Shown in pieces: positions 21,801 to 34,181 of a stretch of DNA of 34,543 nt. Source of the stretch: Candidatus Woesearchaeota archaeon. Its GTDB lineage: Archaea > Nanobdellota > Nanobdellia > Pacearchaeales > GW2011-AR1. Position numbers and translations under genes: made by a program. The stretch is taken from assembly GCA_964450135.1 (NCBI GenBank), contig CAYVCF010000002.1, positions 1 through 34,543 of the forward strand, written 5' to 3'. The notes under the pieces were generated by a model. It was not told the DNA's origin. It saw nothing but the letters and a program-made list of their open reading frames with translations, and ran no database searches. The first letter of the stretch is position 1. Each line of letters opens with the position of its first letter.

Positions 21801-24800
21801 TGTTTTATACCACAAAGAAACAGAATTATTATTTTGAGTAGTTGTTGCTGAAACATAATCCCCTGCCCCATCAAAACTAAAACTTTTTCCAAGTCGTCCA
21901 GACGCATTTTGTTGTGCGTTTCCGAATTTTGTTCCGTTGCTATTTCCTGACCACACAATTAAATTATTTCTTTTCACAAGCAAAATATCATTCTCAACAT
22001 CAACATCGTAAATTTTTCCAGAATAATTTTCTTTCCTGATATTTTTAACTTTTATTAAATTTTTATTTTCATCTAAGAAATAAACTTGTTTTCCGTTGAG
22101 GAAATCAGAATATACCTCTGTGATTGGTTGAAGCCCAAAATCATTTACAGAAAAGTTTAAATATTCTTTATAATTGTTTTCAATCATGGAAGAAATTGTT
22201 GTTAAAATTGATGTGCCTTCTGAACTTAATGAAGAATTTAAATCAGCATTAACTAAAGTAGTTAAACAATTTACAAGAAGAATGCAATTTTCTTTAGCAG
22301 ATAATTTGTTGTCTAAAAGCAAATTAACAGACGAACAAATATCTGAACTTGCATCTGAGCTAAAAGAACAAGTTGCAGAAAAACACGGACTTTGAAAAAT
22401 GGAATCTATTCCAAAAAAGTTAGTCATTGATGCAAATATTTTATTTTCATTTTTCCAGCATAAATCATTTAGAAGATATTTAATTGAAGAATTGCTAAAT
22501 TCAGATTGTGAATTAATTTCTCCTAAATTTGTTTTTGAAGAATTGATGAATTCAAAATCTAAAATATTAAAATTCTCTGGGATAGATAAATCCGAATTTG
22601 ATTTTCTGTATTCACTATTATCGTCAGAAATTATTTCTGTTAAGAGTTCTGAATATTTTTCATTTTTATCAGAAGCAGATAAAATTTCCCCGCATAGTTC
22701 TAAGAAGGACTCTCCATATTTTGCGCTTGCGCTTTTTTCAAATTGCCCAATCTGGTCTGATGAAAAAGCATTTCTTAAACAAGATAAGATTAGAATTTTA
22801 TCAACAAAAGATTTATTGAAATTATTAAGATTAGAATAGACCTTGTGCTTTGGACTAACAACTAAATCTCCTTTTTCTGTTTCAATCGCAAACATTTCAT
22901 CATCATAATCAAAAGTTTGGTATTCAATTGGTTTATCAAATTCTATTTCTCCGGTTTTTTGATTTAATGTTGCGACTTCTTCTTTTCCGTTTAAGTCAGC
23001 AAAATATTTCCAAGAATAATTATAACACTTTTTATTTTTGTCGTCGGAAACTTCAGAAAAATTTGTGCGCTCGCGTGCAAGCACGCTTTCATCAGCGCCG
23101 AAGGCGACAAATTCTTTTTTCAAATTTTCTTCTTTATAATTTTTATTCTCATTATTTTTATCTTCAATATTTTCCAAATTATTTACCCCCACAAAATTAT
23201 TTTCTCCGCAAGAAATTTCTTCTCTAACTAAAATTTTTGTCTTATTATCATAACATCTTCCCATATAATCCACAACATCTCCAGAAGAATTTACATCATC
23301 CATTCTCCACCATGCAACTAAAGAATTATCCCAATCAACAAAAGTTGAAATATTTGCTTGCGTGTCATTTGAAGTTGCGTTTATGAAAATTGAATTTTGA
23401 TTTCCACCTTGCTGTGAGCCATTTGCTGGAGTTGGAGTTTCAAATTGTGTGAAAGGTTGTGAAGTGTCTACAAAAATATGTCTGATTGTTGTCTTGTTTA
23501 CATTTCCTGCAACATCTTGAACATAAGCAGTGTAATTATAAGTTCCATCTGGTAAATTTGTAAAATTATTTTCAACTCCATAATTTGGAGCGCTTGCGTT
23601 ATACAAACTTTTAATTTCCGACGCTGACAACGCGCGATTAAATATCATAACATCGTCGATGGAGCCGTTGAAATAACTTGTAGCTGAATTACTTCTACCT
23701 ATTTCTATAGAACTTGTACTTGTCACAATTGCCCCGCTAATTATTGAATTATTTTCTAAAACCCCGTTAATATAAATTGCAGAATATCCAGAAGAGTTTC
23801 TTGTAGAAAAAATATTATACCAAGAATCTGCATTCCAATTTGAAGTAGCAGAAGACAAATCAATATAAGAACCATTATAAATAATCAATTTCAATTTCCC
23901 ATTTTGAGAAGGATAATCAAATGCTAAATAATAAGCAACATTTTTATTAATAAGACGAATATTTGAATTCGTGTTGTTTATTATCACTGCAGGTTTTATC
24001 CAAATTCCTAAAGAGATTTCATTAGAAATATTTAAACTATTTCCAGTTCCAACATCAACATAATCCCCGTCCCCATCAAACGCAAACGCCTTTCCTCTTT
24101 TTCCTGACGCTGTTTGATTTGCATTTCCATAAGAAATTCCGTTGTTAGAATTTCCTGACCACACTCCACAATTTCCGTCGTCAGATTCAAATTCAAAAAT
24201 TTCTCCTGAAATATTTAAAGAACAAAATTTGTTTTTGTCGTCGGAAAAACCAAGGACGCGAGCAGAGGGAATCGAACCCCCAAACCCCGAAGGGCACTCA
24301 GGATCAGTGAGTTGTAATAACCATTCTACCATGCCCGCATCCAAATTATCAGAATCTACCGAAATATTTAAATACTTCTCTTCTCTACAATTATTATTAC
24401 TCAGGATCAACGAGTTGGGTTCAACCATTCTATTCGAACCCTCTTTATTTTTATTTTCGTCGTCGCCAAAATTTTCTTCTTCATAATTTTTTGCATCTCT
24501 TTTTATCAAAACAATATCATTTTCAACATCAACGTCGTAAATTTTTCCAGAATAATTTTCTTTTGAAATTGATTTTACTTTTACAGGTTTATTTTCTGAG
24601 TTTAAGAAATAAATTTCTTTTCCATCTAAATAATTTTCATAAACTTCTGTGATTGGTTGAAGAGAGAAAGATTTATATAATTCTTGGTTACTAATTTTAT
24701 TATGAGAATTGCTATTAATGATTTCATTGTTACAGATAGTGAAATTTGCGGAGGCGTCCCAGTTTTCAATAACACAAGAATTATGGTCTGGCAAGTTATG

Positions 24801-34181: not shown

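Follow-up and report, generated by a model that had tools for sequence, protein, structure and literature searches.

The subject of this analysis is a gene for a giant surface protein, interrupted by four inteins, on contig CAYVCF010000002.1 of a Candidatus Woesearchaeota archaeon; "the window" refers to the whole stretch of 34,543 nucleotides that was analysed. Our data make it probable that the four elements belong to a splicing-competent intein lineage that carries selfish cassettes, with toxin–antitoxin (TA) operons at the endonuclease site, in giant LamG-repeat surface proteins of Woesearchaeota, Pacearchaeota and Nanoarchaeota (DPANN). The host gene and the inteins, with the N- and C-terminal parts of the splicing core (N-core and C-core), are located as follows.

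12843-34181, minus strand: host gene of the giant surface protein, one open reading frame (ORF) of 7112 aa
32916-33887, minus strand: intein 1, aa 99-422, 324 aa; N-core 33669-33848, C-core 33258-33428
27174-28223, minus strand: intein 2, aa 1987-2336, 350 aa; N-core 28002-28184, C-core 27552-27722
24150-25952, minus strand: intein 3, aa 2744-3344, 601 aa; N-core 25302-25484, C-core 24498-24668
21942-23255, minus strand: intein 4, aa 3643-4080, 438 aa; N-core 22833-23012, C-core 21969-22139

All four elements start with CYDN(E/K)TKIL, contain SxKHKVY and KIYDVDVENDI and end with VWSGN followed by Ser, and Gly is the penultimate residue in each of them, as described in an initial annotation that had proposed four paralogous inteins. 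Inteins 2 to 4 break the LamG motif directly before FDGxGDYV (SDSSGY-SNNGTL, YDNSSY-SNNGIS and VDYMGR-SNGTKF, the hyphen marking the insertion point), and other LamG repeats, at aa 1625 and aa 1933, are not interrupted at this position. Removal of the elements restores the conserved host motif, e.g. DSSGY-SNNGTL, which is continuous in the intein-free LamG repeats. A further predicted splice junction reads NNLSE-SNNYSQ. Joined in silico, the exteins score 88, 87 and 35 bits with Laminin_G_3. The host protein without its four inteins has 5399 aa, the length previously given for the mature product. Neither a LAGLIDADG nor an HNH domain was detected by Pfam in the four elements. Their 1713 codons contain no in-frame stop, and the other two sense frames contain 123 and 244 stops.

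Alignment of the four elements revealed a conserved core that is split at three insertion sites.

Site 1: after block A
Site 2: between KHKVY (block B) and FSLQPITEVY, before block F; this is the classical endonuclease site
Site 3: between block F and VWSGN (block G)

Joining the conserved parts results in a core of 139-140 aa. AlphaFold (AF2) models the 139-aa core as an all-beta domain (pLDDT 64). When this model was compared with the PDB using Foldseek, the top 50 matches were all inteins, BIL domains or hedgehog Hint domains (TM 0.6-0.67, E down to 1e-5), the best match being a BIL domain (2lwy). A PDB sequence search with the core gave intein matches only. The comparison with intein and Hint profiles that the initial annotation had proposed was positive in one part: with NCBIfam TIGR01445 (intein_Nterm, cutoff 24.5 bits), core 1 reaches 27.1 bits and core 4 20.2 bits. 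A word-indexed protein search with the core returned 6 fragments only, and an exhaustive profile (HMM) search returned 5722 representatives. The relatives with an E-value near 1e-25 are LAGLIDADG_3 inteins of the ordinary kind, located in ThyX, a glycosyltransferase and other proteins. The residues of class 1 inteins, namely Cys1, the SxxH of block B, the C-terminal Asn and Ser at position +1, are present in all four elements of the window. Based on the predicted core fold, the PDB and NCBIfam matches, the LAGLIDADG inteins among the relatives and the Laminin_G_3 scores of the joined exteins, the four elements are assigned to the intein/Hint family and to the class-1 type.

Relatives were collected by scanning metagenome contigs (54 loci) and GTDB genomes (39 loci) with an alignment of the C-core, and annotation of these loci with N- and C-core HMMs yielded 80 unique inteins. 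The related loci are named Woesearchaeota, Pacearchaeota or Nanoarchaeota, save for a few contigs that are likely mis-binned. A scan of IMG/VR found no viral relatives. The four cores of the window are mutual closest relatives together with locus L009, with a core identity of 71-90%. The N- and C-cores share a frame in 80 of 80 inteins and are separated by a gap of 18-2454 nt, which is free of sense stops in 79 of them. Cys1 was found in 68/80 inteins, which are all those matched by the block-A pattern, a pattern that itself requires Cys; among the remaining 12, seven lie at a contig end and five are unmatched. The SxxH motif is present in 73/80 inteins, and WSGN is followed by Ser in 67/67. 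Because the host frame is kept open and the splice residues are conserved across the family, we infer that the four elements are translated and then splice as proteins.

Alternatively, the Hint domains might cleave and not splice, as in BIL and polymorphic-toxin proteins. The surface protein would then be fragmented or its ends varied, and the cargo peptide would stay on one fragment. The absence of the penultimate His and the BIL domain as best Foldseek match fit this explanation, as does the host, since giant exported repeat-rich proteins are reportedly the habitat of such Hint domains (Amitai et al. 2003; Zhang, Iyer and Aravind 2011, PMC3113570), which occur in very large, secreted and fast-evolving proteins. 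On the other hand, a +1 nucleophile is usually absent from BIL and toxin Hint domains and the outcome is cleavage, whereas here Cys1, the C-terminal Asn and the +1 Ser nucleophile are invariant and form the full set for ligation. The insertion points also lie inside the LamG beta-sandwich, which is continuous in the sister repeats; cleavage without ligation would break this domain, which needs to be rejoined. Additionally, the distant relatives are ordinary LAGLIDADG inteins in enzymes. We consider cleavage without ligation unlikely.

Splicing would remove considerable cargo, which differs between the four inteins.

Intein 1: site 1 empty; site 2, family-A tRNA-like module; site 3, degenerate family-B module (about 33000-33170)
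Intein 2: site 1 empty; site 2, family-B tRNA-like module; site 3, family-A module
Intein 3: site 1, GC hairpin module and family-B tRNA-like module; site 2, antisense DUF433/DUF5615 operon; site 3, family-B tRNA-like module
Intein 4: site 1, GC hairpin module; site 2, antisense operon of a small partner and PIN_2; site 3 empty, with blocks F/G reduced to the minimal form KIYDVDVENDILLVKRNNLIVWSGN

The genes at site 2 of inteins 3 and 4 are antisense to the intein ORF and are listed here with their predicted signals, the promoters consisting of a B recognition element (BRE) and a TATA box.

22148-22163, plus strand: BRE/TATA promoter of the intein 4 TA operon, CAGAAAAG-TTTAAATA, 22 nt before the antitoxin ATG; TATA box at 22156-22163
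22186-22395, plus strand: small partner of the PIN toxin, putative antitoxin, 69 aa from the conserved ATG (maximal ORF from 22174)
22399-22839, plus strand: PIN_2 toxin gene, 146 aa, antisense to the intein ORF; PIN_2 74 bits, cutoff 22.4
24664-24679, plus strand: BRE/TATA promoter of the intein 3 TA operon, GAGAAAGA-TTTATATA, 22 nt before the DUF433 ATG; TATA box at 24672-24679
24702-24941, plus strand: DUF433 antitoxin-type gene (maximal ORF from 24684); DUF433 67.4 bits, codon-on-codon with the host frame
24892-25308, plus strand: DUF5615 toxin gene, PIN-like/Mut7-C-type, antisense; DUF5615 58.8 bits, weak Mut7-C match
25763-25832, in intein 3 site 1, with a paralogue at 23046-23115 in intein 4: GC-rich double hairpin, GGCGCCTTCGGCGC … GCGYGCTTGCACGC, with T-runs next to it on both strands

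In both operons the gene order is that of type II TA systems, with the antitoxin first; the PIN pair is adjacent and DUF433 overlaps DUF5615. The predicted genes indicate that site 2 of inteins 3 and 4 holds two different, intact type II TA pairs, exactly at the endonuclease site. Asp11, Glu48 and Asp104 of PIN_2 are invariant among 31 sequences with a median identity of 34%, which is consistent with an active toxin. The 69-aa partner gave no match in a Pfam scan and has homologues in 27 related inteins. An exact look-up of the PIN protein retrieved no record. The spacing of 22 nt between BRE/TATA and ATG is typical of leaderless archaeal transcripts, and the antisense TA operons carry, as far as can be judged from sequence, their own promoters. 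On the sense strand the promoter at 22148-22163 reads …EYLNFS…. The TA genes are presumably expressed and their toxins toxic. The GC double hairpin has 60-65% GC inside a gene of 33% GC and may serve as a terminator of antisense transcripts. A pattern search found this module only in the window and in the close relative L009 (around 6865). A generic sigma-70/terminator scan, which is not suited to archaeal signals, showed no enrichment (8 vs 5±2.7) and picked up the GC hairpins only.

If the inserts are translated as part of the intein, the antisense genes have to be compatible with an open host frame. The PIN, partner and DUF5615 genes (31/31, 27/27 and 16/16) all lie in the phase in which third codon positions face each other, which is intrinsically stop-poor, and DUF433 is positioned codon-on-codon with the host frame in 17/17 cases. 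The number of stops expected in the sense frame was calculated by synonymous resampling of the TA genes.

PIN partner: 0 sense-frame stops observed, 14.8 expected
PIN_2: 0 observed, 47.4 expected
DUF433: 0 observed, 67.0 expected
DUF5615: 1 observed, 29.9 expected

Pooled over the four families, 1 sense stop was observed compared to about 159 expected. The DUF433 genes use TTA or CTA in 0 of 111 Leu codons and TCA in 0 of 50 Ser codons, with a background of 44% TTA and 25% TCA; the other TA genes use TTA, CTA and TCA freely. The DUF433 gene of the window (24702-24941) is likewise free of these three codons. For the window genes taken singly, the probability of finding no stop is 1.0 for the PIN partner, 0.125 for PIN_2, <1/3000 for DUF433 and 0.277 for DUF5615. 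Due to the near absence of sense stops and the avoidance of TTA, CTA and TCA in DUF433, our data indicate that the host ORF is selected to stay readable through the cargo. Removal at the RNA level, by bulge-helix-bulge (BHB) or other introns, was rejected as an explanation because every insert is in frame and stop-free.

The same data bear on the possibility of an artefact, namely a giant ORF that is a pseudogene or the product of chimeric assembly, without translation through the inserts. Assemblies often break at these repeats, and many homologues lie on contigs of 1-2 kb. The same sequence was, on the other hand, assembled independently in ENA and JGI data, the frame is open in 79/80 unique inteins from many samples and antisense stops are avoided at the codon level. 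An artefact of this kind is extremely improbable.

The association of this intein lineage with TA genes extends well beyond the window, and homologues of the TA genes are found in antisense orientation in nearly all related loci. Approximately 62-65 of the 80 gaps hold at least one complete antisense pair of the same two TA families. Elsewhere, the antisense cargo at site 2 consists of DUF2283 (42 bits) with a RelE/PBECR-like (RelE-fold) partner (L062 5269-6171 and L090 931-1878) or of ParE/RelE-like toxins with partners (L076, L095, L022, L049 and L093; 18 bits, below cutoff), so that at least four TA families are found among the site-2 cargo. Two or three antisense TA operons are arranged in tandem in L041/L042, L012, L013, L016, L058, L067 and L087, with gaps of 1.4-2.5 kb and an open host frame throughout. 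In one related intein (L087 9139-11367), an in-frame cargo on the sense strand takes the place of an antisense TA operon at site 2; it has approximately 616 aa with AlbA_2 (Schlafen, 79 bits) and HATPase_c_4 (70 bits) and hydrophobic segments on either side. Site 2 is empty in three relatives (L004, L075 and L094; gap 18-24 nt), and L094 has a tRNA-like module downstream of the C-core. Most of the roughly 70 listed regions upstream of antitoxins contain the promoter GAAAG(A/T)TTTA(A/T)ATA 22-30 nt before the ATG; the remaining ones contain a TATA about 50-55 nt upstream, then a GGAGG-like motif. The host sites are non-homologous: the inteins lie between D.SG(Y/H) and SNNGT in LamG, between …LG(Q/E)G(Q/E) and SEGYSQDTFDL, between …ITIYARA…E and SNP…IEVY, and at others.

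Another explanation for these genes would be that PIN_2 or DUF5615, each with its small partner, forms a two-component free-standing homing nuclease that cuts intein-less alleles and replaces LAGLIDADG, and is not an addiction module. These genes occupy precisely the position of the endonuclease, a PIN-like nuclease fold is shared by the two toxins found most often, and the several non-homologous host sites as well as the spread within one gene need some mobility mechanism. The same site, on the other hand, also holds DUF2283/RelE-fold, ParE/RelE-like and AlbA_2/HATPase_c_4 cargo, so a shared nuclease chemistry is not required. The toxin families at hand are typical RNA-targeting TA toxins, as is established for VapC/PIN, and recombination between LamG repeats can explain the spread among repeats. 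A role as homing nucleases is improbable in our judgement.

Among close relatives, the cargo varies while the core does not. Cores that are 89-90% identical hold three different cargos: a tRNA-like module in intein 2, DUF433/DUF5615 in intein 3 and PIN in L009. Locus L009, from a close relative, is orthologous to the intein 2 site and has exteins that are 95-99% identical, yet its cargo differs at all three sites: site 1 has an insert, site 2 holds a PIN operon, and site 3 is empty. Because near-identical cores and these orthologues hold different cargo, the sequences indicate that cargo is swapped between intein copies much faster than the cores diverge, likely via recombination on conserved core segments. 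The DNA similarity between intein copies that had been noted before amounts to 81-94% over stretches of 110-226 nt. It had been read as recent intragenic spread, which is plausible for the Hint cores, but the architecture itself is old and widespread, with 80 unique related inteins in many DPANN genomes. In locus L043 (8043-8648), two copies of the Hint C-core stand on either side of a tRNA-like module (8385-8470), which suggests a duplication or recombination tied to module insertion. The LamG repeats themselves also show exchange: a 277-nt segment coding for YVSATTTQNNNSVSLWYKTNVSNWIHVVYNSTYNYNGGTGIEFPFNRTDNTILIGVNGTQFFNGS is common to three of them (21599-21875, 28433-28709 and 28901-29177). 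Its identity of 88-91% points to recent gene conversion among the three repeats, which could also carry inteins between repeats.

This variation is relevant for a further alternative, in which the nested operons are domesticated regulators whose TA-controlled antisense promoters would reduce production of the surface protein in stressed cells, either by transcriptional interference or through antisense RNA. The conserved and strong predicted promoters directed against the host gene would fit such a role, as would the terminator-like GC hairpins downstream of the operons. Cargo type and copy number, on the other hand, vary freely in close relatives and some sites are empty, which suggests selfish turnover. 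We attach little probability to a regulatory role.

The second type of cargo is RNA-like. ARAGORN and Rfam detected five tRNA-like sequences on the sense strand, one in intein 1 and two each in inteins 2 and 3, with RF00005 scores of 47-53 bits (gathering score 29). Even at a permissive threshold, Rfam gave nothing other than tRNA.

33442-33637, minus strand: family-A module, intein 1 site 2; tRNA-like 33442-33527, with an upstream partial self-copy and TATATAAACTTTTCT at -39
27295-27480, minus strand: family-A module, intein 2 site 3; tRNA-like 27295-27377, with the antisense promoter CAGAAAAGTTTATATAG at 27400-27416 (plus strand)
27730-27924, minus strand: family-B module, intein 2 site 2; tRNA-like 27730-27812, with an upstream hairpin and anticodon-arm copy
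25540-25734, minus strand: family-B module, intein 3 site 1; tRNA-like 25540-25622
24256-24453, minus strand: family-B module, intein 3 site 3; tRNA-like 24256-24338

All five carry a long variable arm, G73 and the anticodon GAU, and they share one reading register, in which tRNA nucleotides 1-3 form codon 1 and the anticodon is itself read as a codon. With a covariance model based on 16 copies, about 21 copies were found in the metagenome loci and the window and about 15 in the GTDB loci, all on the sense strand. Covariation supports the cloverleaf: paired cells make up 93.5%, compared to about 40% in slid controls, 18 of 21 pairs show changes on both sides, and none of 500 shuffles did as well. 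Across the family, the long variable arm and G73 are combined with a D arm of class-I-like type and one of the anticodons GAU, GAA, GAC or CAA. Since such a body is not that of the isoacceptor to which the anticodon points, the modules are termed tRNA-like and are not filed as tRNA genes.

Upstream of every tRNA-like sequence there is an A-run, a partial self-copy and a TATA whose distance is fixed, at -39 for family A and at -33 or -36 for family B. In family A the partial self-copy comprises a hairpin, D arm and variable arm, in family B a hairpin and anticodon arm. The two parts of a module co-vary: among 29 unique modules, 19 have a partial copy whose best match is the tRNA-like sequence of the same module, and in 25 this sequence is among the two best matches. 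Read antisense, the TATA region of the modules is the same BRE/TATA as in the TA promoters (compare CAGAAAAGTTTATATAG at 27400-27416 with CAGAAAAGTTTAAATAT at 22148-22164). The predicted antisense RNA of a module would form two hairpins, then a U-tract (z-scores in family B -2.9, -3.5 and -1.6), and would be complementary to part of the adjoining tRNA-like RNA. Modules were also seen outside recognisable inteins, at L007 4208-4296 and L039 5265-5347, and they keep the reading register there; one is found directly before the N-terminal membrane anchor of a giant ORF, the other within a different ORF. It was considered whether the tRNA-like sequences are att-site remnants of integrated elements. 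This is unlikely, as the geometry of partial copy, spacer and promoter is fixed and found in two families and many genomes.

In inteins 1 and 2, a tRNA-like module sits where most relatives hold a protein TA operon. A tentative and rather doubtful extension of our interpretation is that the intein lineage is a protein-level cassette platform whose three loops exchange selfish cassettes, one class of which would be an RNA-only addiction or decoy pair. Such a pair would consist of the sense tRNA-like RNA and an antisense small RNA of about 60-70 nt. The tRNA-like RNA, with its Ser-type long arm, G73 and Ile, Leu, Phe or Val anticodons, might cause mis-decoding or be a decoy for anticodon-cutting PIN toxins. 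The small RNA would arise by transcription from the TA-type promoter across the partial tRNA-like copy, which would make it complementary to the D and variable arms or to the anticodon arm.

The initial annotation had named the elements endonuclease-less mini-inteins, and this label did not hold: they are 324-601 aa long and contain 185-461 non-Hint residues that encode TA operons or RNA modules. Taken as a full account, it would mean that the extra residues are a meaningless linker and that the antisense ORFs and tRNA-like matches are incidental. It is true that Pfam found neither LAGLIDADG nor HNH, that the core of about 139 aa has the size and fold of mini-inteins such as the Mtu RecA mini-intein, Npu DnaE and gp41-1, and that three related loci (L004, L075 and L094, with the empty site 2) are true mini-inteins. 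The elements of the window are, in contrast, filled with functional-looking genes and RNA modules. Their antisense ORFs match curated TA families far over the cutoffs, retain active-site residues despite the low median identity as well as consensus promoters, and recur in most of the related inteins, and the tRNA-like cloverleaf is kept by the compensatory changes. The mini-intein explanation is very improbable and already refuted as a full description.

Returning to the interpretation that we prefer, an intein lineage with selfish cassettes, the following mechanism is proposed. Due to the antisense orientation, the stop codons of the TA genes read as Leu or Ser in the host frame, and the choice of phase, together with the strict avoidance of TTA, CTA and TCA in DUF433, holds that frame open. 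The ribosome would read through the cargo and produce an insert of 60-460 aa for which no fold is confidently predicted. Protein splicing would then discard the insert with the intein and restore the LamG domain. In a model of the whole intein 4, the Hint parts have a pLDDT of 70-78 and the stretch encoded antisense to the TA genes of 24-48; these low values fit a spacer without a fold and are weak evidence for it. The TA operon would most likely be an addiction or stabilisation module: deletion of the intein would lose the antitoxin gene, and TA would take the place of homing. In return, the intein would offer the TA genes a harmless site in a very gene-dense genome.

Several observations weigh against this interpretation. 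The Pfam part of the profile comparison fell short, as Intein_splicing (PF14890) scores 17-27 bits with a gathering score of 35.8. The AF2 models are of moderate confidence, with a shallow alignment behind them. The penultimate His is replaced by Gly (always VWSGN), so that the usual catalytic helper is gone; this His is common in inteins and not obligatory, and some known inteins tolerate its replacement. Taken gene by gene, an open frame is no great surprise in three of the four TA families (P = 0.12-1.0 in the window), and the strength of the argument comes from DUF433 and from pooling. The related loci share ancestry, and their counts are not independent events. The addiction role is drawn from the behaviour of TA systems on plasmids and in integrons. 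Finally, the host protein carries an N-terminal signal or anchor, and a suitable place for the folding and splicing of four inteins that contain long unstructured inserts is hard to name.

A comparison with known systems shows which parts of this arrangement are familiar. With canonical archaeal LAGLIDADG inteins (e.g. PI-PkoII; those of ThyX and replication proteins) the elements share the Hint fold, Cys1, (T/S)xxH, the C-terminal Asn, the +1 nucleophile and the location of cargo between blocks B and F. The cargo here is, in contrast, a free-standing two-gene antisense operon with its own predicted promoter instead of an in-frame endonuclease, the host frame across it encodes spacer only, and the penultimate residue is Gly. 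The host, too, is an exported giant surface protein and not a nucleic-acid enzyme; to our knowledge, inteins are almost unknown in exported proteins. The TA cassettes of plasmids, genomic islands and integron arrays are similar in being exchangeable small type II pairs inside dispensable or mobile DNA, where they are thought to prevent loss. Here, however, the carrier is a protein-coding intein, and the TA genes are antisense and co-encoded with an open host frame, a dual coding that is not seen there. Group I introns with free-standing or antisense homing endonuclease genes are also self-splicing elements that harbour an independently expressed gene. Their removal takes place at the RNA level and leaves the frame free, whereas here removal would take place at the protein level, with the frame kept over up to 2.4 kb. 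The tRNA-like modules resemble tRNA-derived SINE/MITE-type elements and the leaderless tRNA genes of Nanoarchaeum equitans in their short, repeated tRNA shape, in their many copies and in a TATA at a fixed distance from +1. They differ in that they are always in frame inside ORFs and in one register, combine a class-I-like D arm with the long variable arm and G73, and possess a co-varying partial self-copy and a promoter matching the antisense TA promoters. In the literature searched, in which subscription journals were thinly covered, we found no account of TA operons or tRNA-like elements inside inteins. The splicing core is kin to canonical inteins, and for the cargo arrangement, antisense TA operons in an open host frame and ORF-compatible tRNA-like modules, no precedent was found there.

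Some further features of the window concern the host protein and its surroundings. From the N- to the C-terminus, the protein comprises a membrane anchor or signal, beta-helix-like repeats, LamG (Laminin_G_3) repeats and a transmembrane (TM) segment with a HerA/FtsK-like ATPase. The C-terminus beyond the TM segment (12843-14900, minus strand) is a cytoplasmic P-loop ATPase of the HerA/FtsK/DUF87 type (DUF87 49.8 bits), and its fusion to an adhesin-like protein is an unusual combination. The glycine-rich beta-helix-like region is duplicated internally (29514-29813/30885-31184 and 29827-29969/31195-31337), with 77-83% identity at a distance of 1.37 kb. At 7805-7904 (plus strand) there is a tRNA match of 100 nt (Rfam 56 bits) that was not called by ARAGORN. 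It is intergenic, located after the topoisomerase I gene, and is probably an archaeal tRNA gene with an intron.

Inteins without an endonuclease are usually viewed as decaying remnants heading for loss. A whole intein lineage in which TA operons replace the endonuclease suggests a second route to persistence, addiction instead of homing, and if addiction holds, this would be a two-way alliance of two kinds of selfish elements. The loci are among the clearest natural cases of long antisense dual coding, with 0.6-2.4 kb in dozens of genomes and a codon signature in DUF433, and such dual-coding inteins offer a natural test bed for the building and upkeep of overlapping genes. Annotation pipelines likely mis-call these loci, either by dropping the TA genes or by breaking the giant gene, and the repeated inteins probably break assemblies as well. 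It is also probable that the Hint core can accommodate very large inserts in three of its loops, up to about 820 aa between blocks B and F, with a lack of fold modelled for intein 4 only. If expressed, the tRNA-like modules would represent a new kind of ORF-compatible RNA element in genomes that are almost without intergenic space.

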